A model generated the notes under the pieces. That model ran no database searches and was not told the DNA's origin. It saw nothing but the letters and a program-made list of their open reading frames with translations. Both the position numbers and the translations under genes were made by a program. This document shows, one piece after another, positions 3,122 to 49,284 of a stretch of 64,000 bases of DNA. Positions within the stretch are counted from its first letter, which is position 1. Every line of letters begins with the position of its first letter. The stretch is from Pelagibacterales bacterium SAG-MED50. Its GTDB lineage: Bacteria > Pseudomonadota > Alphaproteobacteria > Pelagibacterales > Pelagibacteraceae. The stretch covers positions 60,258 to 124,257 of the forward strand of contig JACWER010000002.1 of NCBI GenBank assembly GCA_014653385.1, read 5' to 3'.

Positions 3122-3182
3122 TAGTTACTTATTATTAAAGTCAAAATTAAAACAACTATTTCAATAGCAATTAAGGTATCCA

Positions 3183-8706: not shown

Positions 8707-9184
8707 AAATGTTTTCTTAGGAATTGGCTCTAATTTAGGAAATAGAATTATAAATATTGAAAAAGCAAAATCACTTTTATTGGAAAATCGTATAGATTTT
8801 ATATCTGTATCAAATTATTACGAAACTCCTTCATGGCCAGATCCAAAAAAACCAAAATTTATAAATATTGTATTAAAAGTTACCTGCGAGCAAAAACCTC
8901 AAGAAATGATTAATTTATGTAAACTTATAGAAGTTAAATTAGGCAGAAGGAAATCTCCTAAAAATTCACCAAGAATTTGCGATATAGATATCATTGACTT
9001 TGACGGTTTGGTTTTGAGAGATGAACTATGTCTTCCTCATGCAAGAATGCATGAAAGAAATTTTGTTTTATTGCCTTTATTTGAGATCGAAAAAGAGTGG
9101 GTTCACCCAATTAAAAATGTTAACATAAAAAAGTTAATTTTTTCCCTACCAAATAAAGATATTAGATCTATTAAACAAATTTGA
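8672..9184 (+). CDS. folK: 2-amino-4-hydroxy-6-hydroxymethyldihydropteridine diphosphokinase (start set at GTG 8672)
   Basis: [34 protein letters not shown]. Confidence 0.92.
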
Positions 9185-9203
9185 ATTAATGTTATAATAA
9201 ATA

Positions 9204-10949
9204 ATGCTTAATTCTAGTGAATTAATAAATAAAGTTAAAATCTATAATAAGTTTTTAAATCCTGAAAGATTAGATAAAGCTTTTAATTTTGCTGTTAAAG
9301 CTCATCAAAATCAAAAAAGAGCTTCAGGTGATCCTTACTCTGTGCATCCTATAGAGGTTGCTAATATTTTAACTGAACTAAAACTAGATAGTGCAACAAT
9401 TACCACAGGTTTACTTCATGACACAATAGAAGACACCTTCGCCACTTATGAAACTATTAAAAGCGAATTTGGTGATGAGGTTGCTGAGTTAGTTGATGGT
9501 GTAACAAAAATATCTGTATTTGAAAATACTGCTGGCTTAAATTCAAAAGTAGAAAATTTTAGAAAATTAATTTTAGCTACATCTAAAGATATAAGAGTTT
9601 TGTTGGTAAAAATCGCTGATCGTCTTCACAATATGAGAACGATTAAAGCAATTCCTAAAGAGGAAAAAAGACAGCGTATAGCACAAGAGACCATGGAAAT
9701 TTATGCACCCTTAGCTGACAGAATGGGTATGCACAGAATTAGAGATGAACTTGAAGATTTATCTTTTGAGATTTTAAATAACGAAGCAAGAAAATTAATT
9801 AAAAATAGACTAGATGAAATTAAATTAGATAAAAAAGATCTCTTCGAGTCTCTTTCTTTTGAATTAAGTTCGATTTTAAATGAAAATCATATCGATGCTG
9901 AAATACATGGTCGTGAAAAAACTCCTTTTTCAATTTGGCGTAAAGTTCAAAAAAAAAGAATTTCACTTGAACAAATCACGGACATAATTGGATTTAGAAT
10001 TACACTTTCGTCAGTAGATGAATGTTATAAAACACTTGGTATATTTCATAAAAAATGGAACTGCATTCCAGGTAAGTTTAAGGATTACATATCATCACCT
10101 AAAATTAATGGCTATAAATCTCTACATACATCTGTTATTGGCTCCAATCAAAAACCAATTGAAATTCAAATTAGAACAAATGAAATGCATGAATTTGCTG
10201 AAAGAGGAGTTGCCTCTCATTGGAAATATAAATCTTCAGAAAAATTTAATTCTTTAAGTTGGAAAGAATATGATTGGTTAAAGGATCTTGTTGAAATTAT
10301 CGAAAAAAATGAAAATCCTGAACATTCCTATGAGTACACAAAACTTCAAATGTTCCAGGAAAATGTATTTTGTTTTACACCAAAAGGCTCTGTTATAAAA
10401 TTACCAAAAGACGCAACACCAATTGATTTTGCATACGCGGTACACACAAAGATAGGTAACACTGCAATAGGATGTGAAGTTAATGGAAATAAATCTGAAT
10501 TACAGGAATTATTAAGAAATGGAGATAGGGTAAATATAATTACATCTAAAAATCAATCACCTTCATTGCACTGGATACCAACAACAAAAACAGGAAAAGC
10601 GAGAGCTGCTATTAGAAGATATTGGCACGATAAAGGAGAGCAAAAAGAGGAAAAAATAAAGAAATATAACACTACTTTATGGATTTCATTACCTGATCAG
10701 CCAGGTCAGTTGGGGGATATAAGTTCATTGATTGGTAGTCACAAACTTAATATTTCAAATGTTGAAATGGCAGGTAAAAGTACAAAATATATTAACTTTA
10801 AATTCAAACTAATCATAACGAACCTTAAAAACTTCACAAATTTTATTGCAGAGCTTAAACAAAAAGGTATAAAATTTAAGATAATTAGACACGAAGATAA
10901 AAGAAATGCTTTCACTCAAAAAATCCTTAAATATTTTAAAAAAGACTGA
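9204..10949 (+). CDS. spoT: Bifunctional (p)ppGpp synthetase/hydrolase (RelA/SpoT homolog) with shortened C-terminus
   Basis: LLHDTIEDT, KIADRLHNMRT, YKSLHT, EIQIRT, TGS (DFAYAVHT), C-terminal ACT. Confidence 0.95.
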   Translation: MLNSSELINKVKIYNKFLNPERLDKAFNFAVKAHQNQKRASGDPYSVHPIEVANILTELKLDSATITTGLLHDTIEDTFATYETIKSEFGDEVAELVDGVTKISVFENTAGLNSKVENFRKLILATSKDIRVLLVKIADRLHNMRTIKAIPKEEKRQRIAQETMEIYAPLADRMGMHRIRDELEDLSFEILNNEARKLIKNRLDEIKLDKKDLFESLSFELSSILNENHIDAEIHGREKTPFSIWRKVQKKRISLEQITDIIGFRITLSSVDECYKTLGIFHKKWNCIPGKFKDYISSPKINGYKSLHTSVIGSNQKPIEIQIRTNEMHEFAERGVASHWKYKSSEKFNSLSWKEYDWLKDLVEIIEKNENPEHSYEYTKLQMFQENVFCFTPKGSVIKLPKDATPIDFAYAVHTKIGNTAIGCEVNGNKSELQELLRNGDRVNIITSKNQSPSLHWIPTTKTGKARAAIRRYWHDKGEQKEEKIKKYNTTLWISLPDQPGQLGDISSLIGSHKLNISNVEMAGKSTKYINFKFKLIITNLKNFTNFIAELKQKGIKFKIIRHEDKRNAFTQKILKYFKKD

Positions 10950-33381: not shown

Positions 33382-34670
33382 ATAATACAATAAATATTGC
33401 AGTAGTGGGCTTAGGTCAGGTAGGTATTTATTTGCTGAATGAATTAAATACTAAAAAAAAAGATATTGAACTTAAAACTGGAAAAAAAATTAATATTGTA
33501 GCTATATCAGCAAGAAATATTAATAAAAAAAGACAATTTAAAATTAATAAAAAAATTTTTTTTAAAAATCCTTTAGAAATTTTCAATAAATCAAAAGTTG
33601 ATATTTTATTCGAAGCTATAGGTCAATCAGATAGTGTATCAAAAAAAGTTGTTGAAACTGCATTAAAAAAAAAAATTCATGTTATTACACCTAACAAAGC
33701 ATTAATTTCAAAACATGGAAATGAATTAGCAAAAATTGCAGAAAATAATAATGTTAATCTGGAATTCGAAGCTTCTGTTGCCGGAGGTATTCCCATATTA
33801 AGATCAATTAAAGAAGGTTTAGCTACTAACAAAATCTTAAAAGTTTATGGAATATTAAACGGCACATCTAATTATATTCTTTCAGAAATGGAAAATTCTA
33901 ACCAAAGCTTTTCTAATGTTTTGAAAAATGCCCAAAAACTTGGTTATGCTGAACCAGGAAACTCAAAATTAGATTTAAATGGATTTGATGCATTTGCAAA
34001 AGTTAGAATTTTATCAGCACTATCTTTTAATAGTAAAATTTCTAAACACAAATGCTTGATGGAAGGAATTGAAAAAATTGACCTTAAAGATATCAAGATT
34101 GCCAACCAATTGGATTTAAGAATTAAACTTCTAGGAATATCTGAATTAAAAAATGGTCATTTGTTTGAAACTGTGCATCCATGCCTGGTTAGTAAAAATT
34201 CTTATATTGGTAATGTTTCTGGTGTAATGAATGCTGTTATCCTTGAAGGAAAACCTGTTGGTGAAAGTATTTTACAAGGTGAGGGCGCTGGGCCAGGACC
34301 CACATCCTCAGCATTGCTTTCTGATTTATTATCTATTTTGAGAGGTGGTATTAAAAAACCTTTAGGCGTTTCTGTTAATAAACTTAAATCTTTAAAACCA
34401 TATAATGTTAACAACTATGTTAATTCTTTGTATTTAAGATTTGAAGTTAAAGATAAGCCAGGTGTTTTATCTAAAATTACTAACCGTTTAGCTAAATACA
34501 AAATATCTGTAAAAAGACTTATTCAAACACCTAATAAAAAAGATAGTAAGGCTACTATTGTTATAATAACTCACAAAACATCCGAACTTAATTGTAATAA
34601 TTGTTTGTCTATATTTAAAAAAAACAAAGATATTCTTAAAACACCCGTATTAATAAGACTGTATAATTAA
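33378..34670 (+). CDS. hom: Homoserine dehydrogenase
   Basis: GLGQVG, NKAL, FEASVAGGIP, GILNGT, GAGPGPT, C-terminal ACT. Confidence 0.95.
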   Translation: MNNTINIAVVGLGQVGIYLLNELNTKKKDIELKTGKKINIVAISARNINKKRQFKINKKIFFKNPLEIFNKSKVDILFEAIGQSDSVSKKVVETALKKKIHVITPNKALISKHGNELAKIAENNNVNLEFEASVAGGIPILRSIKEGLATNKILKVYGILNGTSNYILSEMENSNQSFSNVLKNAQKLGYAEPGNSKLDLNGFDAFAKVRILSALSFNSKISKHKCLMEGIEKIDLKDIKIANQLDLRIKLLGISELKNGHLFETVHPCLVSKNSYIGNVSGVMNAVILEGKPVGESILQGEGAGPGPTSSALLSDLLSILRGGIKKPLGVSVNKLKSLKPYNVNNYVNSLYLRFEVKDKPGVLSKITNRLAKYKISVKRLIQTPNKKDSKATIVIITHKTSELNCNNCLSIFKKNKDILKTPVLIRLYN

Positions 34671-35585: not shown

Positions 35586-36437
35586 ATGAAGGCAATAATT
35601 TTAAATGCTTCTGCATGGATGATTGTTCCTGTTATGGATGCTTTTGCAAAATACTTAAGTTCATCTATGGATGTTCTCCAAATTACATGGGCTAGATATT
35701 TCTTCACTGTGGTTTTTACTTTATTTTTAATGCTAATTTTCTACAGACACACATTGGTATGGACAAAAAAACCCGCCCTTCAGTTAATAAGAGGATTAAT
35801 TTTTGTTTTTTCTACGTATTTATTCTTTTATGCAATATCAGAAATTTCCCTTCCCAAAGCTTTAACTTTAGCTTTCGTTGCCCCTATATGCGTAACAGCT
35901 TTGTCACCTTTTTTCCTAAATGAGAAAGTAGGGGTGAAAAGGTGGACGGCCGTATCCTTAGGGTTTATTGGAACATTGATAGTAATAAGACCTGGTTTTA
36001 TTGAGTTAAACTTACCTACAATGGCTGCGTTAGGTAATGGAATTTGTTACGGATTTTATCTTATAATTACAAGGAAGCTCAGTACTTCAGATAATCCACT
36101 TTTAACGCTTTTGTTATCGGGTTTGATAGGAACTATCATAATTAGCCTATTTATACCTTCTGTTTGGGTTAATCCGACCTCAAATCAATGGATTTTAATG
36201 GCTTTAATCGGCCTTGTAGCTTCCGTAGCGCATCTTTTCATAATTTTATCCCTCAAATATGCTGATGCATCTAAATTAGCTCCTTTGGGCTATACAGAAA
36301 TTATTACAAATATACTTATCAGCTACTATTTCTTTCATGAATTACCTGATAACTGGACTTATTTAGGTTTATTCATCATTGTTTTAAGTGGGTTATATAT
36401 TTCTAGGAGAGAATACTATTTAAATAAATTTAATTAA
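35586..36437 (+). CDS. DMT/EamA family transporter
   Basis: ITWARY, LNEKVG, GTLIVIRPG, ADASKLAP. Confidence 0.9.
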   Translation: MKAIILNASAWMIVPVMDAFAKYLSSSMDVLQITWARYFFTVVFTLFLMLIFYRHTLVWTKKPALQLIRGLIFVFSTYLFFYAISEISLPKALTLAFVAPICVTALSPFFLNEKVGVKRWTAVSLGFIGTLIVIRPGFIELNLPTMAALGNGICYGFYLIITRKLSTSDNPLLTLLLSGLIGTIIISLFIPSVWVNPTSNQWILMALIGLVASVAHLFIILSLKYADASKLAPLGYTEIITNILISYYFFHELPDNWTYLGLFIIVLSGLYISRREYYLNKFN

Positions 36438-36905
36438 TAGTAATTATTTATTTACTATATATTAATGTATTACATTAATTAATATATATAAATTTTTGTA
36501 ATTATTACATTATTTAATTTTATTAAATATTTATATTTTTGATAATCTACAAAATAAATAATACTATGTTTCTAAAAATTTATCAATAATTAGAAAAAAT
36601 TAAATTAATGATTTATTAAATATTGAATTATTTAATTATTAAAATTGGATTAATAATTCAAATATCTAATTATTGTTAAAAGTCTTTATTATCAACATTT
36701 TTTTAGCATCAGAAAATATTTATGTCACCAATTAATATTACATGACGAAAGGAGAGGGAAAATAAGTAAAAAAAAATGGGATTTTTATCGTCCTCTATAA
36801 TTGTTGGTATTATTGAAAACTGGAGCAATGCACTATCAGAATATATGGTTTAAACGGCCATAGAGTACCTTATTTTAAGCAAAGATCGATATATAGTACA
36901 ACTGA

Positions 36906-36933
36906 AGGGTGCATAATACCATTTATGGGAAAA
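36906..36933 (+). other. dif-like site (11-6-11)
   Basis: AGGGTGCATAA-TACCAT-TTATGGGAAAA, inner GCATAA/TTATG as in proteobacterial dif; lies at the gene-orientation switch. Confidence 0.5.
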
Positions 36934-36999
36934 AAGATTAAAATAGCTTAAAAGTGTTTATTTTAAGGGTTAATTTAAGGATTTGGTGTTTATAAAACG

Positions 37000-37320
37000 C
37001 TATTTAATTAAGACCTTTTCTAACATCAGTAATCGCCTTTTTTGCTGAATACCGCCTTTTCCTGAGTAGCCACCAAGGCTGCCATCAGATCTTATCACTC
37101 TATGGCACGGTATTTTGGGAGGATAGGGGTTTTTACCTACAGCATTAGCAACTGCCCTGAAAGCTTTAGGTTTTCCAATTGCTTTAGCAATTTCTAAGTA
37201 GGTTTTAACCTTACCTTTGGGTATTTTTTTTATGTAATTCCAAACTTTTAGCTGAAACTTAGTTCCCTTATATAATTTCTTCCATTTCACTTTATCTTTT
37301 TGCCTCAAAGATCTAATCAT
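37000..37320 (-). CDS. ogt: Methylated-DNA-protein-cysteine methyltransferase (single C-terminal domain)
   Basis: GTKFQLKVW, IPKG, RAVANA, PCHRV active site. Confidence 0.88.
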   Translation of the reverse strand: MIRSLRQKDKVKWKKLYKGTKFQLKVWNYIKKIPKGKVKTYLEIAKAIGKPKAFRAVANAVGKNPYPPKIPCHRVIRSDGSLGGYSGKGGIQQKRRLLMLEKVLIK

Positions 37321-37338
37321 AATTATTAAATAAGAAAT

Positions 37339-37515
37339 TTAACCCACTGAAATTATTGCCAAATAACTAAATAAGAAAATAATTGATAAAATTGATAAAT
37401 ATATCGTTTCTTTTGTTTTTCCCGATTTCTTATAATGGACTACACTTAAAAATATAAAAGCTATTGATGTTATTAAAAAATTTATCGGCTCAATAATGCC
37501 ATCTAAACCTGCCAT
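37339..37515 (-). CDS. 58-aa hypothetical two-TM membrane protein (not in ORF track)
   Basis: MAGLDGIIEPINFLITSIAFIFLSVVHYKKSGKTKETIYLSILSIIFLFSYLAIISVG*; two hydrophobic helices joined by a Lys-rich loop. Confidence 0.6.
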   Translation of the reverse strand: MAGLDGIIEPINFLITSIAFIFLSVVHYKKSGKTKETIYLSILSIIFLFSYLAIISVG

Positions 37516-37535
37516 AATTATTTAAATTTATACTA

Positions 37536-37596
37536 TTGACATTAAAAATCACTTGTTATATTACTAACGATAATTAATGGTTATCAATAGTAATAT
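37536..37596 (+). promoter_or_regulatory. sigma70-type promoter overlapped by a 16-7-16 inverted repeat (lox/dif-like site or operator)
   Basis: TTGACA at 37536; ATATTACTAACGATAA-TTAATGG-TTATCAATAGTAATAT at 37558-37596 with 14/16 arm symmetry. Confidence 0.7.
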
Positions 37597-38551
37597 GAAT
37601 GATATAATAAAAAATATAAAAGCATTACAGGAAGAAACATTATTAAACCTTCAAAGCTCAAAGGCAGATAATACTATAAGGGCTTACAAATCAGACTTTA
37701 ACGACTTTGGTTTATTTTGTGTGCAAAATGGTTTTAAATCACTTCCATCTGAACCAAAAATAGTTTCACTCTATTTAACTTATTTATCAACTAAAGGTAT
37801 TAAAATGAGTACTTTAAAGAGAAGATTAGTATCAATAGGCCTCATACATAAAATAAAAGGACACTACCTAGATACAAAACATCCCACAATTATTGAAAAT
37901 ATAATGGGTATTAAGAGAAGGAAAGGTAGTACTCAAAAAGGTAAAAAACCATTATTAATCAATAATTTAAAACAAATTATTAATGTTATAGATAATGAAA
38001 TAAATGAGGAAATAAAAAAAATTAGGGATAGAACAATAATCTTAATTGGTTTTTCAGGAGGGTTTAGGAGGAATGAGTTGGTATCACTAGACTTGGAAGA
38101 TATTGATTTTGTAGAAGAAGGTCTAAAAATAAATCTTAAGAGATCAAAAACAGATCAATTTGGAGAAGGGTTTGTAAAAGGACTGCCCTACTTTAACAAT
38201 CAAGAATTTTGCCCTGTAGTTTCAATAGAAAAATGGATTAAAATAGCAAAAATTAATTCAGGACCATTATTTAGAAGATTTACAAAAGGGTTAAAATTAT
38301 CTGAGAATAGATTGACAGATCAAACAGTTGCTTTGCTCATAAAAAAATATCTTAAATTAGCAGGTATAAATAACAAAAACTATTCTGGACATAGTTTAAG
38401 ATCAGGATTTGCAACTTCTGCAGCCGAGTCTGGAGCCGAAGAAAGGAATATAATGGCGATGACAGGACATAAGTCAACTGAGATGGTGAGAAGATATATT
38501 AAAGAAGCCAATCTTTTTAAAAATAACGCATTAAATAAAATTAATTTATAA
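37595..38551 (+). CDS. Tyrosine recombinase, Cre-like subfamily (start set at ATG 37595)
   Basis: NTIRAYKSD, RDRTIILIGFSGGFRRNEL, RSKTDQFGEG, CPV, GHSLRSGFAT, TGHKSTEMVRRY; R-K-HxxR-H-Y all present. Confidence 0.93.
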   Translation: MNDIIKNIKALQEETLLNLQSSKADNTIRAYKSDFNDFGLFCVQNGFKSLPSEPKIVSLYLTYLSTKGIKMSTLKRRLVSIGLIHKIKGHYLDTKHPTIIENIMGIKRRKGSTQKGKKPLLINNLKQIINVIDNEINEEIKKIRDRTIILIGFSGGFRRNELVSLDLEDIDFVEEGLKINLKRSKTDQFGEGFVKGLPYFNNQEFCPVVSIEKWIKIAKINSGPLFRRFTKGLKLSENRLTDQTVALLIKKYLKLAGINNKNYSGHSLRSGFATSAAESGAEERNIMAMTGHKSTEMVRRYIKEANLFKNNALNKINL

Positions 38552-39734
38552 ACTTAGGAAATGGAACATGTGAAATAAATTTAAGTCCTTTTTTAATAAA
38601 TTTTTTTTCTTTTTTAATAATTTCCTTACTAAAATTCCATGCACCTAAAAAAACATAATCATAATTTTTCAGAATATTTTTATTATATTTCAAAATTTTA
38701 ATATTTCGTCCAGGTATATAATTGTTAATTTTTTCTGGTGTTGTATCAGTAAAATTTGAAATTAGATCTTTATTAATATTACAATAATTTAATACAGTTA
38801 CAGCTTTTGCAGTTGCACCATAACCAATTATACTTTTATTATTTTTTTTAATTTTATTGAGAATTTGTATAAGTTTTTTTTTAGATTTAGAGACGTTATT
38901 TGAGAATTTTTTATAAGTTTTAAATTTATGTAATTCATAAAAGATTTCTTTTTTAATTTGAATATTAACTCTATTTGTAACCTTAAAATTTTTATTTTTT
39001 TTTCTTTTAATATAGTATCGTAGAGAACCACCATGAGTTGGTAAATTTTCCAAATCAAAAATTTCAAGATTAAATTTATTTAGTAAATAATTAACCGCTA
39101 TAGCTGAAAAAAGATAAATATGTTCATTATAAAATTGATCATAGGAATTTTTTTTAACACATTCAAGTAATGAAGGATCTTCAATTATCAAAACCCCGTC
39201 ATCAGACAATAAGAGACAAATTGATTTAAAGACATCATTTAAATCACTAATATGAGTTAATGTATTAGCAGAATATATTACATCAACAAATTTAAATTTT
39301 TTTTTGATTTTTGAGGCTAAATTCAAATTCCAATAATCATCATATGTTAGAAAATTATTTTTTTTTGTTATTTGGGCCAAGTTTTTACATGGTTCCACCC
39401 CTATTACATTATCTTTGTTAAAATTTTTTATCAAAGCACCATCATTACTTCCAATTTCTAAAAGTAAATTTGGATTGAATCTTTTTTTTATTATTTGTGA
39501 TAAATTTTTAAAAGAAGCTTTCATCGTAAGTGACATAGAAGATCTGTAAGGGTATTTGGAATTAAACATTTTTTCTGACGGTATTCGTTTTGATATTGAG
39601 ACAAGTTTAGTGTTAGTGTTAAAACAAACTTTTAAATTGTATAATTGACCTTTTTTGATAGATAATTTTTTTGGACTTTTTTGATATTCATTTGCCAAAG
39701 GTTGAAGACCTAAGTTTAAAAAAGGCTTAATCAT
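38541..39734 (-). CDS. NDP-sugar C-methyltransferase (class I SAM-dependent)
   Basis: LNLGLQPLAN, YPYRSS, EIGSNDG, YDQFYNEH, THGGSLR, GYGATAK, AWNF. Confidence 0.88.
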   Translation of the reverse strand: MIKPFLNLGLQPLANEYQKSPKKLSIKKGQLYNLKVCFNTNTKLVSISKRIPSEKMFNSKYPYRSSMSLTMKASFKNLSQIIKKRFNPNLLLEIGSNDGALIKNFNKDNVIGVEPCKNLAQITKKNNFLTYDDYWNLNLASKIKKKFKFVDVIYSANTLTHISDLNDVFKSICLLLSDDGVLIIEDPSLLECVKKNSYDQFYNEHIYLFSAIAVNYLLNKFNLEIFDLENLPTHGGSLRYYIKRKKNKNFKVTNRVNIQIKKEIFYELHKFKTYKKFSNNVSKSKKKLIQILNKIKKNNKSIIGYGATAKAVTVLNYCNINKDLISNFTDTTPEKINNYIPGRNIKILKYNKNILKNYDYVFLGAWNFSKEIIKKEKKFIKKGLKFISHVPFPKFIN

Positions 39735-40543
39735 GATTTCAAACCCCAAACTTTTAAACGAATTAAGTATTTCATATTATTATTTAATTTTAAATACTTA
39801 CGTGTATGTTGGTCAGATATTATTGATTTATTATTTTTTTTATAGCAATAAGTTTCGCTAAACTTCCAGTTATATTCATCGAATTTATCACCATCTGAAT
39901 TTACTACAAAAATTTTTATTTTTTTCTTTTTTAAATACTTTGTTAAACTATTTTTTCCACTTTCTATTTTTAATGTATCTTCTTTATTTCTTAATTTTTT
40001 ATTCTTAATAAAATTTAAAAAAATTTTTGAATTAATTAAAAAACTTGAAGTACGCATATGTGGATTCGGAAATTTATCAAAATTTTTTAAAAAATAATAT
40101 TTTCTTATCAAGAATCTAAATATTTTATGAAATTTATTTTTAAGTTTAATAGAGTCTACCATACTTTCATAAGATGCTGTTGGAGCTATAACAGTATTTT
40201 TTTTTTTAAATAAAAATAATTTTTTTAACCAGTTATGACAAGTTGGATATGAATGACTATTTAGGAATAAGATATCTTTATCAAAAAATAAATTAGAAAC
40301 TCTTTTATAGCTGCCAAAATCCCAATCATTAGCTTTTCCTGGATCAATAAACTCAACGTAATTAATACTAATTAATTTTTTTTTTAATTTAATCACTTCA
40401 TTAATGCTAAATAATTTAAAACAAATAACTAGTTGGTGATTTAAACCCGATTTATACTTTTTGTAATTTTTAACAAAATTTGTAAGTGATTTTTTTTTAT
40501 CAAAAGAAGTATAATGATAACAAACAATATTATTAGTTGACAT
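39731..40543 (-). CDS. Hypothetical polysaccharide-synthesis protein, possibly RgpF-like glycosyltransferase
   Basis: WDFGSY, ILFLNS, PHMRTSSF, IESGKNSLT; located in a sugar cluster. Confidence 0.4.
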   Translation of the reverse strand: MSTNNIVCYHYTSFDKKKSLTNFVKNYKKYKSGLNHQLVICFKLFSINEVIKLKKKLISINYVEFIDPGKANDWDFGSYKRVSNLFFDKDILFLNSHSYPTCHNWLKKLFLFKKKNTVIAPTASYESMVDSIKLKNKFHKIFRFLIRKYYFLKNFDKFPNPHMRTSSFLINSKIFLNFIKNKKLRNKEDTLKIESGKNSLTKYLKKKKIKIFVVNSDGDKFDEYNWKFSETYCYKKNNKSIISDQHTRKYLKLNNNMKYLIRLKVWGLKS

Positions 40544-40667
40544 AAATAATTTATAATGGATTTTTCGATAAATAAAACACTTAAGAGAATAAATTATTAT
40601 TAAGTTGGAAAGTAATCAAAATTAATATATTGAATAATTTCATTAACTTTTAATTTAAAAATTCTTT

Positions 40668-41864
40668 ATGAAAAAAATTTATTATGGTCGAGCTGTATAT
40701 GATCATAATGAGATTAATGCTGTTTTAAAAGTATTAAAAAATAATAGTTTATCTTTGACTGATGGTAAAAATGTTAAGGAATTAGAGAGAATATTTTCTA
40801 AAATGTTTGGAAAGAAATATGGCTTGATGGTTAACTCAGGTTCTTCAGCTAATTTATTGGGTTTAGCATCTTTTAATTTTAAAAAAGGTTCTGAGATAAT
40901 TACTCCAAATTTAACATTTTCTACAACAATTGCTCCTATTTATCAGCTCGGTTTAATCCCTCACTTTATTGGTGTAGAAAAAAATAAATTCGTTGCCGAT
41001 GTTAATCATATAGAAAAATGTATTAACAAAAAAACTGTGGCTATTATGATACCTAATCTACTAGGGAATATTGCTAATTGGGTAAAAATTTCAAAAATAG
41101 CAAAGAAATATAAGCTAAAAGTTTTTGAAGACTCAGCTGATACTGTAGGGTATTCATTAAATAAAAAAAATACAGGTAAATACTCAGATATTGTAACTAA
41201 TAGTTTCTATGCTTCACATATTATTAATGGTGGTGGCACTGGTGGCATTGTATGTTTTAATGATTATAAATTATATCAAAAAGCAAAATTACTTAGAGGA
41301 TGGGGAAGATCTTCTGCAATATTTAATGAGTCAGAAAATATTGATAAAAGGTTTAATATTAAAATATCTGGTATTAATTATGACGCAAAATATGTCTTTT
41401 CTGAAATGGGATACAATTTTTTACCATCAGAAATTTCTGCAGCATTTGCATTAGAACAATTAAAAAAATTAGGTGATAATATTAAAATAAGAAATAGAAA
41501 TTTTACAAAATTGCACTCCTTTTTTGGTAAGTATAAAAAGATGTTTAACTTACCTGAGATGTATCCTGGTATCAAAACACCATGGCTTGCTTTTCCAATA
41601 GTTATAAAAAAAAACAAATATTTCGATAGAAAATCATTACAAATTTACCTTGAGAAAAATAAAATTCAAACAAGGACAATTTTTACTGGAAATATCCTTA
41701 AGCAACCAGTTATGAAAAATAGAAAATATAAGTTTTATAAAGGTTGTAACGATGTTGCAGATGATGTTATGAAAAATGGAATTCTTATAGGATGTCATCA
41801 TGGTATGTCCATTGCTGATGTTAATTTTATTTGTAGGACTTTTCAAAAATTTATTAATAAATAA
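40668..41864 (+). CDS. DegT/DnrJ/EryC1/StrS family enzyme, NDP-4-keto-6-deoxyhexose 3-dehydratase type
   Basis: MVNSGSSANL, PNLLGN, EDSAD, SFYASHII (His in place of the Schiff-base Lys), RGWGR, GYNF. Confidence 0.85.
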   Translation: MKKIYYGRAVYDHNEINAVLKVLKNNSLSLTDGKNVKELERIFSKMFGKKYGLMVNSGSSANLLGLASFNFKKGSEIITPNLTFSTTIAPIYQLGLIPHFIGVEKNKFVADVNHIEKCINKKTVAIMIPNLLGNIANWVKISKIAKKYKLKVFEDSADTVGYSLNKKNTGKYSDIVTNSFYASHIINGGGTGGIVCFNDYKLYQKAKLLRGWGRSSAIFNESENIDKRFNIKISGINYDAKYVFSEMGYNFLPSEISAAFALEQLKKLGDNIKIRNRNFTKLHSFFGKYKKMFNLPEMYPGIKTPWLAFPIVIKKNKYFDRKSLQIYLEKNKIQTRTIFTGNILKQPVMKNRKYKFYKGCNDVADDVMKNGILIGCHHGMSIADVNFICRTFQKFINK

Positions 41865-41907
41865 AAATGATAAAAATATTATTTTTTAATGAGATAGTCA
41901 AAACTAT

Positions 41908-42609
41908 ATGAGAAATAAGATATTAGTAACAGGTGGCAATGGTAGATTTGCAAAAGTTCTAAAAAAAAGAAATAATTTATTAAATTTAAAATTTCTATCA
42001 AAAAAAGAAATGAATATATTAAATATAAAATCGATTGAAAAATGTATAACTAAACATAAACCAAAAATACTGATACATACGGCTGGTTTATCAAGACCTA
42101 TGCAAGAACATGAAATCAATATTTCAAAAAGTATTGATTTAAATATTATTGGTACAGCAAATATTGTTAAAGCATGTGAAAAGCATAATATAAAATTAAT
42201 TTATTTTTCAACTTGTTATGTTTATGATGGTATAAAAGGTAATTTTAATGAAACAGATCCAGTCAAACCAATTAATAATTATGCTTTATCAAAATTGGGG
42301 GGTGAAAGTTCAGTATTAATGTATAAAAATTCATTAGTTTTGAGAATTCAAATGACCGAAAAACCATTTTTTCATAAAAAGGCATTTACAAATCTTTTTT
42401 CAAACTACATTTTTCATGACGAAATGGCCGATATATTACCAAAATTATTAAATAGTTTTGGTATTATCAATGTTGGCGGCAAACTTCAGTCTATATACAA
42501 TTTTGCTAAACAACATAATACAAAAATTATTAAAGATAAATGTATAAATAAAAAGATTCCTTTAAAACAAACTATGAATTTAAGTAAACTAAAAAAAATT
42601 CTTAATTGA
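41908..42609 (+). CDS. dTDP-4-dehydrorhamnose reductase-like SDR (short)
   Basis: VTGGNGRF, STCYVYDG, ETDPVKPINNYALSK. Confidence 0.8.
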   Translation: MRNKILVTGGNGRFAKVLKKRNNLLNLKFLSKKEMNILNIKSIEKCITKHKPKILIHTAGLSRPMQEHEINISKSIDLNIIGTANIVKACEKHNIKLIYFSTCYVYDGIKGNFNETDPVKPINNYALSKLGGESSVLMYKNSLVLRIQMTEKPFFHKKAFTNLFSNYIFHDEMADILPKLLNSFGIINVGGKLQSIYNFAKQHNTKIIKDKCINKKIPLKQTMNLSKLKKILN

Positions 42610-42765
42610 AAAAATTATTTAGCAGTTATTTGAAATAACTATATATAAGTATTAAGATAATTAAAGACTAGAATGATATGATTTTAATATATAAATTTAA
42701 AATAGATTATGTCAAAATCAAAAAAATATATTTAAGTTAATAAATAGTTATAAAAGATTTATCCA

Positions 42766-43290
42766 ATGAAAATTTTAAAAACAAATTTTAAAGATTTTTT
42801 AATTTTTGAATCAATGAATTTCTATGATAGACGTGGTTTTTTCAGGGAGTTAATTCATCAGAAATATATTAAAAAAAAATTAGTTTTTACTGTTGTTTCC
42901 AAATCAAAAAAAAATGTTTTAAGAGGCTTACATATGCAAGTAAAAAAACCACAAGGAAAATATGTATCTGTTATTAAAGGTAAAATCTTAGATGTAGTAG
43001 TCGATTGTCGCAAAAATTCTAAAACATTTGGAAAACATTTTAAAATTATCTTAAGCCAAAAAAATTGTAAATCAGTTTATATCCCACCAGGTTTTGTTCA
43101 CGGGTTTCTTGGTTTAGAAAAAGAAAATATTATTGTCTATAGTTGTACTAATTATCGAGATAAAGATTCAGAAATGGGAATATTATGGAATGATAAAAAA
43201 TTAAATATAAATTGGTCAATTAAAAAACCCATACTATCCACAAAAGATAGAAATAATATTTCATTTGAAGATTATCTAAATAAGATATGA
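42766..43290 (+). CDS. rfbC: dTDP-4-dehydrorhamnose 3,5-epimerase
   Basis: DRRGFFRE, VLRGLH, DVVVD, PPGFVHGF, LSTKD. Confidence 0.93.
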   Translation: MKILKTNFKDFLIFESMNFYDRRGFFRELIHQKYIKKKLVFTVVSKSKKNVLRGLHMQVKKPQGKYVSVIKGKILDVVVDCRKNSKTFGKHFKIILSQKNCKSVYIPPGFVHGFLGLEKENIIVYSCTNYRDKDSEMGILWNDKKLNINWSIKKPILSTKDRNNISFEDYLNKI

Positions 43291-43352
43291 CATAAAAATT
43301 CAATCAAATTTTTATTTTTCAATTTAATTAAACATATACATTTAAAAAAAAA

Positions 43353-44228
43353 ATGAATAAATCACTGACTATTATAATCCCATCATATAGATCAAAAAAA
43401 TTGATCCTATCACACATAAAAAATCTTTCCAAAAACTTTAGGATTATTATTGTTGAGAATTCATATGATAAGATATTAAAAAAAATAATTAATAATAAAT
43501 ATAAAAATGTTAAAATATATTTAAAAAAAAATATTGGATATGGTAGAGCCGTTAACTTTGCTGCAAAAAAAGTAAAAACAAAATATTTTTTTGTGATAAA
43601 TCCCGATACTGTAATTTATGATCGCACTCTAAAAAACTTAATAAATGCTGCTAATAAAATCGGTGAATTTGGTGCAATTGGCCCTGTTTATAAAAACCAA
43701 AATCAAAAAAAATCAATTAAAAATTTTATTGAAAAAAAAAAACTTGTTGCAGCAGCAATGCTAATTAAAACTGAGATATTTAAAAAAATTAAGGGGTATG
43801 ATGAAAATTTTTTTCTTTACTATGAAGATGATGATTATTTTGCAAAATGTAATTATCTAAATTTAAAGTTGTACTTAATAACAAACTCATTTCTAAGACA
43901 TCCAAAAGTAAAAAAAATGAAAAAAACTCTTAATTTACATTCAACAACTTTTATGAACTTGAATGAGAAAAATAGCACCTATTGTGTTGGCGGTTGGCAT
44001 GGACAATGGTCAAAATTTTATTATTTAAAAAAGTATAAAGGTTTTTTAAAAGCTTCATTTTTATGTTTGCCAAATATTTTTTTGAATTTATTTCAATTAC
44101 TTCCTTTTTTATTTTTTAATCTAAACAAAGCTAAATATAAATATTTTAAAATTGAAGGTTTTTTATGTTCAATGATTGGAACTAGCTCGTTCAAAAGATC
44201 AATATTTGATAAAAAAAATATCTATTAG
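43353..44228 (+). CDS. Glycosyltransferase family 2
   Basis: IIPSY, VENS, NIGYGRAVN, NPD, GYDENFFLYYEDDD. Confidence 0.9.
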   Translation: MNKSLTIIIPSYRSKKLILSHIKNLSKNFRIIIVENSYDKILKKIINNKYKNVKIYLKKNIGYGRAVNFAAKKVKTKYFFVINPDTVIYDRTLKNLINAANKIGEFGAIGPVYKNQNQKKSIKNFIEKKKLVAAAMLIKTEIFKKIKGYDENFFLYYEDDDYFAKCNYLNLKLYLITNSFLRHPKVKKMKKTLNLHSTTFMNLNEKNSTYCVGGWHGQWSKFYYLKKYKGFLKASFLCLPNIFLNLFQLLPFLFFNLNKAKYKYFKIEGFLCSMIGTSSFKRSIFDKKNIY

Positions 44229-44235
44229 ATATAAT

Positions 44236-45117
44236 CTAATTTTTTTTTAGATTTATTTTTCTATAGAAAAATTTAACATAAAAATAATTTAATTTACATT
44301 TAATAAAGTTTATTAAAAAATTAAAACTATGTTTAGGTTTTATTAACGGGCCTGTATATTTTGTGTTAGATTTTAAATAAAATTTCTTAAAAAACTTAAT
44401 ACTTATCCCCCACTTTAATAGAAAAACTTTTCCACTTCTACTACCATAATTTGGTTTATTCTCTAACTTATTAATTTTTTTTCTTAATACAACTGATCCA
44501 AAGTGGTAAACTTTAAAATTATTTAAACCTTTAAAAATACGTATACCTTCATTCCAAAGTTTTATATTAAAATCAGGATCTGATCCTACACCGGGAAAAT
44601 ATTCTTCACTAAATCCACCCACTTTATTCCAAATTGATTTATGAACTAATGTAGGTGCCCATGTTGAACCTTGAAAATCATAGTAATTAAAATCTTTATA
44701 ATTTTCTAAAAACTTTTTTTCATTAAATTCATTAGGTTTTTTACCACAATCAAATTTAATTTGACCTTCATTCATCATTGTTCCAGATAAGTAAAAATTG
44801 TTATGACCAATTTTATTTATTTCATTTAATAAGACTAAATCCCATTCTGGACAAAAATAAAAATCATCATGCGCATAGAGAAAATAATCAAATCTAGCTA
44901 ATTTTGCAGCCGTGTTAATACCCTCACATATACCTGAATTATAAATAGTGTGTGAAAAATTAATTTTTTTATTTTTTAAGTACTCAGTAGTTCCATCGTT
45001 TCCAACATTTACATGACAAACTATTTGATGATCAAATTTAGAATTTTTTTTAATACTATTGATACAAAATTTTAAATATTCAATATTATTAAAAGTAGGA
45101 ATTAAAATTGAAAACAT
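44236..45117 (-). CDS. Glycosyltransferase family 2
   Basis: SILIPTFN, AHDD, VGGFSEEY, SDPD, VYHFGS. Confidence 0.9.
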   Translation of the reverse strand: MFSILIPTFNNIEYLKFCINSIKKNSKFDHQIVCHVNVGNDGTTEYLKNKKINFSHTIYNSGICEGINTAAKLARFDYFLYAHDDFYFCPEWDLVLLNEINKIGHNNFYLSGTMMNEGQIKFDCGKKPNEFNEKKFLENYKDFNYYDFQGSTWAPTLVHKSIWNKVGGFSEEYFPGVGSDPDFNIKLWNEGIRIFKGLNNFKVYHFGSVVLRKKINKLENKPNYGSRSGKVFLLKWGISIKFFKKFYLKSNTKYTGPLIKPKHSFNFLINFIKCKLNYFYVKFFYRKINLKKN

Positions 45118-45122
45118 TTAGT

Positions 45123-47207
45123 TTAGACAACTGAATGCCAAAAAGGTTTTTTTGATTGATCTAATTCTGCACAAGATAAAATATAATTAGAAATAACTAT
45201 GTTGCTCATATGTCGGTGATATTTTTCATAACCAGATTTTGCAATTTTAATTCTTTGTTTATCATTATTGTTGTAGAATTTTAATTTTTTTATCAAATCT
45301 TTTTTATTTTTGTAATAAATAACATCCTTATTAGATAAAATTTTTTGAAAATTAGTGTTTTGGTTAATAAATACTAAAAGACCATTACCAATAAGAGATG
45401 AAATTCTATCGCTAGAATATTTATTTTGGTATTTACCTCTACTTATATTTAGAGCCATTTTTGTTTTAGACAAATAGTGATAATAATTACTACCCCAAAT
45501 AGGTTCAAAATTATTTAATCCAAATTGAGCAAACTTAAACTGAGGTAGATCTGAAATAACTTCATTAATAAATTTTTCACGTTCATCAAATTTACCTTTT
45601 TTAAGAATACCTCTATTTTGACCATGACTTACTGCTACAAAAATATCATATTCGTTAAAATTATTTTTATAATTTTTATAATGATCGATAGCAGCATCTA
45701 CTGGATTTGGAATAAATTTTAGTTTTTTATAATGTTTATGATTCCTAAAAATACTTGGAGATGACGTTAAAAAACAATAATCAACAAAATCAAGGTTTCT
45801 CAAAAAATTAGTTTTAGTATTATCTTTTAAAAATTCTGGTGATACGGAGTCTATAAACCAAGAACATATTTTGATACTATTATCATTGCAGTACTTAAAG
45901 ATCTCATCTGTGATATTAAATACATGACCAATAACAATAATGTGTGGTGAAAAATTTTTGATTGTATTAAAAATTTTGTCATTAAATTTTTTAATTGGAC
46001 TAAAGGGTTGAATTATTGATCTATTAGATTTTAAAAACGATCTATTACTTATTGTTTCAACAATATGGTTGTTTTTAATAAATCCATTATTAAGTTTATT
46101 TGCAAATGAGTAATAAAGCCTACCATCTGAATTTTCATTAAAATTTGCTATATGTAAAATTCTTTTTTTATCAGAAAGGTATATATTATTTTGATTATTT
46201 AATATTTCAGATCTTGCATCATCTAACATTTTAGAAATAATTTTAATATTAAAATTATTATTTTTATGAAATAATTTTTGTTTTTGTCTTCTTAAATATT
46301 TATTTTTTGTAATTTTTTTTAAGATATTAACTAATTCAGAGGATGAATTTTCTTTTAAAACTAAAGCAATATTTTTAGACTCCGCTAAACCACCTTTATT
46401 AGAAATTATAGGCAAGCATTTTCTACTACTTGCTTCAATAGCTATTCTGCCTAAAGGTTCATCCCAAACTGAATTTCCAACAGCAATTTCTGATTTACTA
46501 TAATAATTCAAAACTTCACTATTTTTTTTATAACCAATTTCACTAACAATACTTTTGTCTGGGAATATTTCTTTTCTTGCTTCATTACCAATGGCAATAA
46601 AATTCCAACTTGGATCAAATTTTTTGAATTTTAAAGCTGCTTCAGAAAAAATATGGTATCCTTTTGCATGATTTAATTTACCTACAAATAAAATATTTTT
46701 TTCTTTTTTAGATAAATTTATTTTATAATTTTTGTCAATTCCATGAGGAATTATTAATGTATGTGATAAATTTGCATTTTTAAAAGATGAAAAAAATCTT
46801 TGCTGAATCCATCTACTTATAAAAATAACTTTATGGCATCCGCTAACAATATCCTCTCTTTCCTTTAAAGAAATTGAACCTCTTAGTGATAATGGATCAT
46901 TATGGAAAATTAATTTAATTTTTGTTTTTGGAAAATATTTTTTTATATAAGTATAATATTCAGGTCTATTATGTATTTCAATTATTTTAATATTTAAAGA
47001 TTTATATTTTTCACAAAAATTAATTATATAGTTTTTGTTTCTAAATAACTGGCTTTTACTTTTAAAATCATCAGATGAAATTATTGAAATCTTTTTTTTG
47101 AATTTTGAATAATTAGTTGTATCTTTAACATATAATGAAACAGCTCCTGCATAATTTGGATTTAAACTTTCCTTAAAAGGAAGAATAATAAATATATCTT
47201 TTTTCAT
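45123..47207 (-). CDS. Two-module GT-B glycosyltransferase fusion (GT4-like plus CgeB-like)
   Basis: FVGKLNHAKG, SVWDEPLGRIAIEA, KGGLAE; second module ALNISR, YSSDRI, IAKSGYEK. Confidence 0.85.
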   Translation of the reverse strand: MKKDIFIILPFKESLNPNYAGAVSLYVKDTTNYSKFKKKISIISSDDFKSKSQLFRNKNYIINFCEKYKSLNIKIIEIHNRPEYYTYIKKYFPKTKIKLIFHNDPLSLRGSISLKEREDIVSGCHKVIFISRWIQQRFFSSFKNANLSHTLIIPHGIDKNYKINLSKKEKNILFVGKLNHAKGYHIFSEAALKFKKFDPSWNFIAIGNEARKEIFPDKSIVSEIGYKKNSEVLNYYSKSEIAVGNSVWDEPLGRIAIEASSRKCLPIISNKGGLAESKNIALVLKENSSSELVNILKKITKNKYLRRQKQKLFHKNNNFNIKIISKMLDDARSEILNNQNNIYLSDKKRILHIANFNENSDGRLYYSFANKLNNGFIKNNHIVETISNRSFLKSNRSIIQPFSPIKKFNDKIFNTIKNFSPHIIVIGHVFNITDEIFKYCNDNSIKICSWFIDSVSPEFLKDNTKTNFLRNLDFVDYCFLTSSPSIFRNHKHYKKLKFIPNPVDAAIDHYKNYKNNFNEYDIFVAVSHGQNRGILKKGKFDEREKFINEVISDLPQFKFAQFGLNNFEPIWGSNYYHYLSKTKMALNISRGKYQNKYSSDRISSLIGNGLLVFINQNTNFQKILSNKDVIYYKNKKDLIKKLKFYNNNDKQRIKIAKSGYEKYHRHMSNIVISNYILSCAELDQSKKPFWHSVV

Positions 47208-47461
47208 TTTTTTAAAAAATTTATTTTAATATTTTTTCTTAACTTATAATCCTTTTTAAGTTTATATTCATCTTTCATTGCACAAGATTTAGTTAAATAT
47301 TTTTTTTTATAAATAACTTTCCATATTTTACCTTTTGTAAATTTTGCACCTTTTGAATTATTATGAAGAGTTAGTCGTTTCTCTAAATTACCAGTGTATC
47401 CAACGTAAGAAATATTCTTATTTTTATGTTTTGCTAAAATCATGTAAACAAAATAAGGCAT
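47204..47461 (-). CDS. GIY-YIG nuclease family protein (UPF0213-like)
   Basis: YFVYM, SYVGYT, RLTLHNNSKGAKFTKG. Confidence 0.9.
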   Translation of the reverse strand: MPYFVYMILAKHKNKNISYVGYTGNLEKRLTLHNNSKGAKFTKGKIWKVIYKKKYLTKSCAMKDEYKLKKDYKLRKNIKINFLKK

Positions 47462-47464
47462 AAA

Positions 47465-47539
47465 TGGCGGTCCCTGGGGGAATCGAACCCCCCTTTGCAG
47501 GATGAAAACCAGCTGTCCTAACCGATAGACGAAGGGACC
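47465..47539 (-). tRNA. tRNA-Glu(TTC)
   Basis: GGTCCCT...anticodon loop TTTTCAT...GTTCGATT...AGGGACCGCCA. Confidence 0.95.
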
Positions 47540-47589
47540 ATTGATGGGTCTTTTATTTTAAAAGTTAATATAATTCAAGACTTATTAAG

Positions 47590-49284
47590 TTATAGTATTA
47601 AATCTTTGATCTTTAATTGAATTGATTTTTTATTATTCCAAATATTTTCATGTATCTGTACAATAATATTAAATTTATTTTTATAAAATAATAAATAATG
47701 ACCAATTTTAGAATTTATGCAATTAAAACATATTGCATTAATAAAATTACCTGTATCAGTTTTTATAATAACTGATACATGTCTGTTATTAATAATTTTA
47801 AATTTAATTATTCTAAGATTTCTAATAAGAAAAATTGGAGCTAAATTATAATTTCCAAAAGGTCCTAATTTATTAATATCATTCATAATTTTGCTTTTAA
47901 TTGCTAATGAAGAAAGTTCCATATCATATTTGTTTGAATTTTTGATATGAGGTATTTTTTTTAAAAAATCATTTTGGATAAAGTTATTTAAAAGTAAAAT
48001 ATTTTTTTTTTTTAATGTGAATCCAGCAGCCATATTATGTCCACCGCCTTTATCAATAATGTTTTTATCAATTAATAATTTTATTAAATTTCCAATATTA
48101 TAGGATGACGTAGATCTAGCTGAAGCTTTAAGAAGATTATTGGAGTTTGTGATTACAATTGAAGGTTTATCAAAATAATCTTTTAATCGTGACGCAATAA
48201 TACCTATTAATCCTTCATTCAAATTATTTTTATAAAAAATTAATACATTTTTATTTTCTTTTTTAATCTTTTCAAAATCAATGTCATTTAAAATATCCTC
48301 TTCTATTTTCTTTCTTTTATTATTAAGATTTATTAACTTTTTAGATCTATCTTTTATAATTTCCTTATTGTTTGTAGTAAGCAATTCAACACCATATTTA
48401 GAGTAATTAAGTCTTCCACCGGCATTAATTATAGGTCCAATTAAAAAACCTAAATCTTCAACAGTTATTTTTTTTTTTAAATTATATTGATCAAATATAT
48501 AACTAAATGCTGCATTATTTTTTATATTAAAATCATCAAGTGTATTACGTGCTATAATTTTATTAATTTTCCTTAGTGGCATTACATCACATATCGTTGC
48601 AAGTAATACATAAATTAAAAAATTTGATAATTTGAAATTTGTTTTTTTTTTTTTAATTATAATATCTATATAAAAATAAGTTAAAGCAGTGGCACATAAA
48701 AATGAATTTTCTTTATATGTTAATTGTTTTTTTGGGTTAATTATGGCGTCAGATTTTGGATAAGGTTTATTAATTTCATGATGATCTATAATTATTGATC
48801 GAATATTATGTTGATTCAAATAGTCGATTGCTTCATTTGAAGTTGATCCACAATCAACCATTATTATCAATTTAGGTTTTTTTAAAATTAATTTTTGAAA
48901 AAGTTTTTTGCTAGCTCCATAGCCGTCATTGACTCTGTCAGGAATATAAAAAAAATGTTTTTGATTAATATGATTAAAATATCTTACTAATAAAGATGTT
49001 GCACATACACCATCAACATCATAATCACCTAAAATACAAATATTTTCATTTTTTTTTATTGTGTCTAAAAGAATTAATGATGCTTTTTGATAGTCGTAGT
49101 CATTTTCAAATTTATTAACTAATTTTTGATTATTTTCAATACCGTATATCTCTGAGGCATCATAATTTTTTGAAATTATTAAATGTGATAAAATGTCTCC
49201 AAAACCATAATCTTGTCTAATTTTTTCAACTAAATTTTTATTAACTATTTGTTTCTCCCATCTTTTTCCAGAAACAGATATCAT
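47590..49284 (-). CDS. recJ: Single-stranded-DNA exonuclease RecJ
   Basis: GDYDVDG, DGYG, VDCG, IDHH, NAGGRL, GGGHNMAAG. Confidence 0.95.
   Translation of the reverse strand: MISVSGKRWEKQIVNKNLVEKIRQDYGFGDILSHLIISKNYDASEIYGIENNQKLVNKFENDYDYQKASLILLDTIKKNENICILGDYDVDGVCATSLLVRYFNHINQKHFFYIPDRVNDGYGASKKLFQKLILKKPKLIIMVDCGSTSNEAIDYLNQHNIRSIIIDHHEINKPYPKSDAIINPKKQLTYKENSFLCATALTYFYIDIIIKKKKTNFKLSNFLIYVLLATICDVMPLRKINKIIARNTLDDFNIKNNAAFSYIFDQYNLKKKITVEDLGFLIGPIINAGGRLNYSKYGVELLTTNNKEIIKDRSKKLINLNNKRKKIEEDILNDIDFEKIKKENKNVLIFYKNNLNEGLIGIIASRLKDYFDKPSIVITNSNNLLKASARSTSSYNIGNLIKLLIDKNIIDKGGGHNMAAGFTLKKKNILLLNNFIQNDFLKKIPHIKNSNKYDMELSSLAIKSKIMNDINKLGPFGNYNLAPIFLIRNLRIIKFKIINNRHVSVIIKTDTGNFINAICFNCINSKIGHYLLFYKNKFNIIVQIHENIWNNKKSIQLKIKDLIL

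Follow-up and report, generated by a model that had tools for sequence, protein, structure and literature searches.

How do SAR11 bacteria, the most abundant bacteria of the ocean, resolve their chromosome dimers? P. ubique was listed without a dif/Xer system in a survey of 2009 (Carnoy and Roten), which was taken as an effect of streamlining (PMC2731167), and SAR11 papers name a gene xerD, or "XerC and XerD", without analysis. The question is raised again by a locus of Pelagibacterales bacterium SAG-MED50, in which a tyrosine recombinase gene starts at the edge of a palindromic site. We analyzed this locus within a stretch of 64,000 nucleotides (hereafter the window, to which all plain coordinates refer). 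We consider it likely, from comparative sequence analysis, that the recombinase resolves chromosome dimers as a single enzyme by recombination at this site, and that it replaced XerCD/dif in the ancestor of the Pelagibacteraceae. The strongest argument for such a takeover of the XerCD task is the clean swap seen against the sister family, together with the position of the gene and site at the replication terminus. We found no description of this gene-site module in the literature on SAR11 or Pelagibacter dif, Xer or tyrosine recombinases.

The window encodes a Cre-like tyrosine recombinase

An open reading frame (ORF) on the plus strand (37577-38551) encodes 324 amino acids, on which the catalytic residues below are numbered. 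The gene and its catalytic codons are as follows.

37595 to 38551, plus strand: Cre-like tyrosine recombinase gene, 318 amino acids, start set by conservation and by the called products
38066 (R), 38147 (K), 38390 (H), 38399 (R), 38468 (H) and 38495 (Y), plus strand: catalytic codons of the recombinase gene

The product matches the Pfam family Phage_integrase (PF00589) with an expectation value (E) of 3.9e-23 and 82.5 bits against a cut-off of 27.1, and there is a weak Pfam match for its N-terminal SAM-like domain. Residues R164, K191, H272, R275, H298 and Y307 align with R173, K201, H289, R292, W315 and Y324 of Cre, respectively. Among 26 relatives of the recombinase, R164, K191, H272, R275 and Y307 are invariant and H298 is nearly so. 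The initial annotation, made from the DNA letters and their ORFs, had described a catalytically complete tyrosine recombinase, which the PF00589 match and the six aligned residues bear out. With its R-K-H-R-H/W-Y catalytic domain, the predicted product is a member of the tyrosine recombinase superfamily.

To which branch of the superfamily does it belong? The solved structure that it resembles most in sequence is P1 Cre, in an alignment spanning almost the whole protein (E 2e-10). When a profile was built from 26 members, Cre came first with E 8e-30 (107 bits), followed by XerD (1e-18, 71 bits), XerA (2e-15, 60 bits) and XerH (3e-5, 26 bits). The AlphaFold model of the recombinase has a predicted local distance difference test score of 91, and its top 33 Foldseek hits are all Cre chains, with template modeling (TM) scores of 0.65-0.78 (0.76 for Cre); XerA, XerH and IntI come next, with TM scores of 0.43-0.63. 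Both profile and fold support the earlier proposal of a Cre-like enzyme rather than a XerC/D one.

The recombinase also falls below all Xer cut-offs of NCBIfam, at 88 bits against 220 for XerA, 78.5 against 329.6 for XerD, 74 against 335 for XerC, and 54 against 267 for XerS; the XerD and XerC models, run on the recombinase, gave 75-79 bits against cut-offs of 330-335. With scores this far under the curated cut-offs, it was rejected as an equivalog of XerC, XerD, XerS or XerA. An integron integrase with attI was rejected as well, since IntI models gave 15-26 bits against cut-offs of 265-435 and the flanks hold no further site-like repeats.

As expected of a Cre-type enzyme, the product is closer to Cre in sequence and fold, falls within about 300-400 amino acids and has two domains. 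At the position of the Trp of this type, W315 in Cre (PMC10250229), it has His298, which is nearly invariant in the family. The lox geometry of 13-8-13 is likewise absent from the site described below, which has 7 bp between GATAA and TTATC in 50 of 50 SAR11 loci, with arms of 11-16 bp. Because His replaces Trp315 and the 13-8-13 geometry is missing, we call the enzyme Cre-like and not a Cre orthologue.

A Cre-like gene probably takes the place of XerC and XerD in the family

The recombinase is the sole tyrosine recombinase found in the genome of the window, which is 86% complete. We ran a XerD model on 201 genomes of the order, including 20 of the sister family and 180 of the Pelagibacteraceae, the family of the window. 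Every one of the 20 sister-family genomes gave a XerD-grade match (308-326 bits), and 19 gave a second, XerC-grade match (about 250 bits), with no third match. In the 180 family genomes, the XerD model detected no XerC or XerD, only the Cre-like gene at 70-90 bits, or nothing. The check for xerC and xerD that the initial annotation had called for therefore found neither here nor in the 180 family genomes, and both in the sister family. Because the sister family has XerD and XerC without a third match, the swap of XerCD for the Cre-like gene maps to the base of the Pelagibacteraceae.

For the protein and site searches we used 151 family genomes, 57 of them of high quality. The recombinase is present in 118 of the 151 and in 50 of the 57, almost always as a single copy. 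It is thus a core gene of the lineage, in which no other candidate system was seen (no XerC or XerD in the 180 genomes). A survey of tyrosine recombinases suggests that lineage-specific simple recombinases may substitute for Xer.

A palindromic site overlaps the promoter and the start codon

Between a conserved -35 box and the gene start lies an imperfect palindrome of 16-7-16 layout (37558-37596). Its parts and the neighboring promoter elements are listed here.

37536 to 37541, plus strand: -35-like hexamer TTGACA, kept in nearly all of 50 related loci with either arm class
37558 to 37573, plus strand: left arm of class A (ATTACTAAC-GATAA), nearly invariant in class A genomes
37559 to 37564, plus strand: putative -10-like hexamer TATTAC, 17 nt past the -35, inside the outer left arm, with the same spacing in relatives
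37574 to 37580, plus strand: asymmetric 7-bp center TTAATGG, presumed crossover region, fixed in length and variable in sequence
37581 to 37596, plus strand: right arm (TTATC-AATAGTAAT), its last two bases being the first two of the start codon

This palindrome with its asymmetric TTAATGG spacer had been noticed before. It lies far beyond chance: the genome has it only once, and it hardly varies among 50 related loci, although their proteins share only 53-84% identity with that of the window. The arms are complementary at 14 of 16 positions in the window and at 15 of 16 in some relatives.

The site had also been said to cover the -10 and the start codon, which holds in part. A -10-like box does lie in the left arm, and the right arm reaches ATG 37595, but translation does not begin in the spacer. 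The spacer ATG was rejected since it is not conserved, with spacers of relatives reading TTAATTG, TTAATAG or TTAAAGG. The conserved start is an ATG 4-20 nt past the TTATC core; in the window this is ATG 37595, which gives the 318-amino-acid product that gene callers report. As the spacers of many relatives lack an ATG and ATG 37595 is conserved, we placed the start at 37595.

A third, partial half-site, TACTATTGA, had been proposed on the -35. It overlaps the conserved TTGACA and shows no co-variation with the arms, staying unchanged when they switch class, and was rejected as a binding half-site. Since TTGACA is constant across the arm classes, we read it as the -35 box of a promoter. A strict scan for consensus promoters, which is uninformative in AT-rich DNA, returned 12 hits where 10.1 were expected and missed the conserved promoter.

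A dif-like 28-mer nearby (36906-36933) was tried as the resolution site and set aside, since it is not conserved, occurring with at most 3 mismatches in only 1 of 60 other genomes of the genus. It lies in a very AT-rich stretch of about 560 bp (36438-36999) without an ORF of at least 60 amino acids, between an EamA transporter gene and ogt, where the cover by metagenome contigs is uneven.

The site is conserved as a single copy and exists in two arm classes

Across the 50 related loci, the DNA from TTGACA to the start codon is nearly invariant. In these alignments the site is far better conserved than the gene, and the conservation of the palindrome, on which the earlier proposal depended, is borne out. 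The site core occurs exactly once per genome in 86 of the 151 family genomes, with the same orientation in every case and the gene right behind it; the reversed control gave 0, and the remaining genomes have a TGATAA variant of the core or are incomplete. In the 1.26-Mb genome of the window there is no second full site, the next best match having 6 mismatches in 28 arm positions. No extra copies above control level were found in the flanks of the 50 loci.

The center is always 7 bp long and its orientation relative to the gene is fixed, but its sequence varies (TTAATGG, TTAATTG, TTAATAG, TTAAAGG and TTTATTG). The arms fall into two classes. Class A, the type of the window, has the arms ATTACTAAC-GATAA and TTATC-AATAGTAAT and goes with proteins of 317-334 amino acids. 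Class B has the arms ATTTCC-GATAA and TTATC-GGAAAT, symmetric at up to 15 of 16 positions in some genomes, and goes with proteins of 301-308 amino acids. Both arms switch together between the classes, and TTGACA is unaffected. Arms that co-vary, a center of fixed length and free sequence, and a fixed polarity are what the target of two identical monomers, cut centrally, should look like.

In a quick protein tree, the SAR11 sequences form one clade against the outgroups with full support. The arm class changes 2 times on this tree, compared with 13-17 times when the labels are shuffled. Both classes are found inside one genus, which suggests that SAR11 lineages exchange gene and site together, as one module.

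We also compared positions 36400-38800 of the window with assembled contigs from three marine metagenomes and one metatranscriptome, which carry no transcription information. Summed contig depth reached 7,500-10,000 in the bin with the promoter and the site (37534-37614) and stayed between a few hundred and about 1,500 in most other bins, with a second, lower peak of about 3,100-4,400 at 37939-38019. The 65 bp with promoter and site have 8-20 times the contig depth of their flanks in the marine metagenomes, and the contigs diverge at 37536 and at 37595-37602. This pattern agrees with the conservation found by genome comparison. The "joints" listed for these contigs have short sides and low depth and were given no weight.

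The gene and the site lie at the replication terminus

In the contig to which the window belongs, cumulative guanine-cytosine (GC) skew climbs over 104 kb and declines from there, and the site, at 97.8 kb, is about 6 kb from the peak. To map the terminus, we sampled three complete genomes, each a single contig and each from a different genus (G012, G146 and G037), in 60-kb steps, with fine mapping over the 60 kb around the site. Each of them has one 60-kb interval in which both GC skew and gene strand turn from plus to minus, and the site falls into it; the local maximum of cumulative skew is 2.0, 2.0 and 3.0 kb away. After the recombinase, at most one more long plus-strand ORF follows before a long run of minus-strand ORFs sets in. 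Thus, there is a single target at the replication terminus, as in dimer resolution systems, and the link of gene and palindrome to the skew and orientation switch, first proposed for the window, extends to three genera.

No phage or plasmid genes were found within about 4 kb, in line with the initial annotation; the neighbors are hom, transporters, ogt, a sugar methyltransferase and an aminotransferase. In the flanks of the 50 loci, a dozen gene families recur in varying order and orientation, resembling the variable neighborhoods of the Legionella dif site. The stretch next to the recombinase on its downstream side (38541-48000) has a low GC content of 0.22-0.24 and encodes sugar-modifying enzymes, namely a C-methyltransferase, a DegT aminotransferase and an RmlD-like reductase; judged by these products, it resembles an island for cell-surface glycans that borders on the terminus.

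Related gene-site pairs occur in many phyla

A full-library search returned 2,774 cluster representatives below E 1e-30, with 35-45% full-length identity well outside SAR11, where the named relatives are "site-specific integrase" of unrelated bacteria. Members from a Sporomusa prophage and a viral contig share the layout of promoter, TTCC-GATAA-7 nt-TTATC palindrome and gene, and one relative sits beside the BREX genes brxA and brxB. In 20 of 80 members, from many phyla, a GATAA-N7-TTATC palindrome lies at most 250 bp upstream, with symmetry at 9-11 of 11 arm positions; a control window gave 1 of 80. Palindrome-bearing relatives at 40-50% identity include the Sporomusa prophage, Armatimonadota, Bryobacterales and a Parachlamydiaceae genome. 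The palindromes upstream of relatives' genes lie at these places.

L261, 5941 to 5975
L137, 8564 to 8598
L257, 2700 to 2735
20 further loci among L262-L341

By sequence comparison, the gene-site pair is a member of a widespread Cre-like family with a 7-bp center, and the class B arm type looks ancestral. The relatives in prophage and defence-island settings and the same type of palindrome across phyla fit the idea, put forward at the outset, that the SAR11 pair was domesticated from a mobile Cre/lox-type pair.

Pelagiphages carry copies of the site

Viral contigs were scanned with the site core, which gave 120 loci. Since part of the site served to select these loci, it is an adjoining site of the other class that counts as independent evidence. 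A class A site (at most 5 mismatches in 28) is present in 38 of the 120 loci and a class B site in 44. Both classes lie within 80 bp in 22 loci, in about 5 of which one site fits both definitions, and the reversed controls gave 1 and 1. In three loci, the class A arms have 0 mismatches in 28. Examples of viral sites are as follows.

L124, 4571 to 4630
L207, 503 to 570
L219, 3954 to 4020
HTVC100P record, about 34319 to 34380 (L342, 5320 to 5385)

The site-bearing contigs are low-GC podophages, kin of the cultured pelagiphages of the HTVC010P and HTVC106P types. These types are very abundant and have so far been called strictly lytic. The sites lie near terL, between terS and terL in the two contigs in which both terminase genes were identified, and apparently also in HTVC106P. 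Of the cultured phages, HTVC100P combines a class A site (1 mismatch) with an adjoining class B-like one. A class A-like site is present in Greip, degenerate copies of both classes in HTVC106P, and only a half-site in HTVC010P. Many phage class A sites have a center of 6 bp instead of 7 bp. A relative of the enzyme is encoded in only 3 of the 120 loci, two near-complete site-bearing phage records contain no tyrosine recombinase, and a single-protein search found no close homologues of the enzyme in viral contigs.

We wondered whether such phages are found integrated at the host site. This was rejected: the terminase of one site-bearing phage matches 9 of 401 family genomes, and the five examined have their own integrase of 420 amino acids, far from the site. 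No integrated copy was found at the host site in the 151 genomes, and the host flanks are absent from the site-bearing viral contigs.

Either way, the phage copies argue for a site that works in trans and is not just an operator. Integration and P1-like circularization are both possible uses. In P1, loxP circularizes the genome; the phage copies may likewise circularize or monomerize the incoming genome, or may alternatively mediate integration at the host terminus, as with Xer-hijacking elements. It is quite possible, and we suggest it tentatively, that integrase-less pelagiphages of the HTVC010P and HTVC106P types exploit the host Cre-like recombinase through these target copies, often with both classes covering either host.

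A proposed one-enzyme system for dimer resolution and its alternatives

How would dimer resolution work with one enzyme? Two recombinase monomers would bind the inverted arms of the single site upstream of the gene. An odd number of crossovers would fuse the sister chromosomes into a dimer with two sites in direct orientation near the septum, and four monomers would then synapse both sites and exchange strands across the 7-bp center, giving two monomeric chromosomes. The site would also span the -10 box, the start of transcription and the initiation codon, so that recombinase bound to it should act as a repressor of its own synthesis and hold the amount of enzyme down. From the patterns above we infer that the enzyme recombines the site, resolves dimers and represses itself, with whatever control FtsK may exert. 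The genome of the window encodes an FtsK of 697 amino acids with a gamma domain. Cre-like enzymes need no FtsK, and Leslie and Sherratt reportedly found in 1995 that Cre/loxP put at the dif locus replaces dif in E. coli. XerS, XerH and XerL are precedents for a single recombinase (PMC5357621, PMC9765430). In HTCC1062, the gene annotated xerD rises with recA in light (PMC3090418), which weakly supports dimer resolution.

Several points weigh against this reading. No protein match was found in 7 of the 57 high-quality family genomes, and no XerD-model match in 14 of the 180; the genomes without a match are mostly multi-contig assemblies, in which an assembly gap is possible. A conserved palindrome over a promoter equally resembles a pure operator, and Cre-like enzymes without FtsK control could create dimers as well as resolve them. 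The terminus was placed by skew alone, in only three complete genomes. Further, the genes around the module form a different mosaic from genome to genome, as would be seen where recombination is frequent or an island ends.

An unlikely alternative, in our view, is an integrase that the host has kept, domesticated together with its attachment site and serving mainly the entry and exit of phages, satellites or islands at the terminus. It would account for the nearest relatives, which are called site-specific integrases and occur in prophage or defence-island contexts, for flanking genes that differ among genomes, and for pelagiphages that carry the site. However, no element flanked by two sites is present in the 151 genomes, and the related prophages come with their own 420-amino-acid integrase far from the site. 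The loss of XerCD exactly in the lineage with this gene calls for a housekeeping role, and the terminus position is kept in three genera. A role in integrating mobile DNA could coexist with dimer resolution.

We regard it as rather improbable that the palindrome is an operator only, an autoregulatory site of an enzyme that recombines elsewhere or no longer does so. That the site runs across the -10 box, the probable point of transcription initiation and the start codon would suit this, as would conserved arms around a free center, which fit the site of a dimeric repressor. Against it, the six catalytic residues are all retained, within the family and outside it, no other site-like sequence is present in the genome, and the center keeps its strict 7-bp length and fixed polarity. 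Phages that lack a recombinase copy the site, and they would gain little from an operator that serves the host. The recombination targets of Cre, XerS and XerH also adjoin their genes (PMC10250229, PMC5357621). A system of the invertase, shufflon or integron kind, which would invert DNA or shuffle cassettes close to the terminus, is highly improbable: the mosaic neighborhood fits it, but it needs at least two sites, and there is one per genome, with no degenerate copies in the flanks above the reversed control. The sequence TTAATGG by itself is a frequent form of overlapping stop and start codons.

Comparison with known recombination systems

In Cre/loxP, Dre/rox and Vika/vox (PMC10250229), as in SAR11, one enzyme of about 320 amino acids has a palindromic target beside its gene, and a GATA motif adjoins the center of the SAR11 site as it does in functional Cre-type targets. 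P1 Cre is the nearest solved relative by sequence, by profile (over the full length) and by fold, and dimer resolution of a replicon is the natural job of Cre. Identity to Cre is only about 20%, and the SAR11 enzyme has His in place of Trp315. Unlike the 13-8-13 target of Cre, the SAR11 site has 7 bp between GATAA and TTATC; the SAR11 pair is chromosomal, is found throughout a free-living lineage, lies at the terminus, and its site overlaps the promoter of its own gene.

XerS/difSL of streptococci and XerH/difH of Helicobacter and Campylobacter are similar as terminus modules of a single recombinase and an adjoining target in lineages without XerCD (PMC5357621, PMC2731167). They differ in sequence, the XerS model giving 54 bits against a cut-off of 267 and XerH a remote match (E 3e-5), and FtsK dependence has been shown for them. 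The center of difSL is 11 bp long, compared with 7 bp in the SAR11 site. The left arm of difSL, TTTCCGAAAA (quoted in PMC5357621), is one base from the class B arm TTTCCGATAA; in DNA so rich in AT this may be a coincidence, and we claim no more than a resemblance.

XerL/dif of the Legionellales (PMC9765430) is the closest precedent. That lineage, too, was first listed without dif/Xer and later turned out to have one unusual recombinase, and its dif site has long uninterrupted inverted arms near the skew maximum, variable neighborhoods and a mimic in a mobile element. In L. pneumophila, xerL is more than 400 kb from dif, unlike in SAR11, and the system has been tested by genetics. XerC/XerD-dif shares the presumed task and the chromosomal position with the SAR11 module but has two paralogous enzymes and an 11-6-11 site.

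Significance

The two natural enzyme/target pairs, with different arm specificity, a 7-bp center and many relatives across phyla, are candidate orthogonal tools for genome engineering. Published discovery pipelines for Cre-type systems demand an 8-bp spacer and would therefore have missed pairs with a 7-bp center.

For SAR11, a concrete gene and a 39-bp site make the dif/Xer question of P. ubique directly testable. If our reading is true, this would be the fifth independent single-recombinase solution after XerS, XerH, XerA and XerL, the first of the Cre-like branch, and the natural counterpart of the E. coli experiment that replaced dif by Cre/loxP. The site copies in phages point to an unrecognized dependence of dominant marine phages on a host recombinase. 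If this too is true, the host module would be a recombination system shared by host and phage, and lysogeny or pseudolysogeny in SAR11 would have been underestimated.
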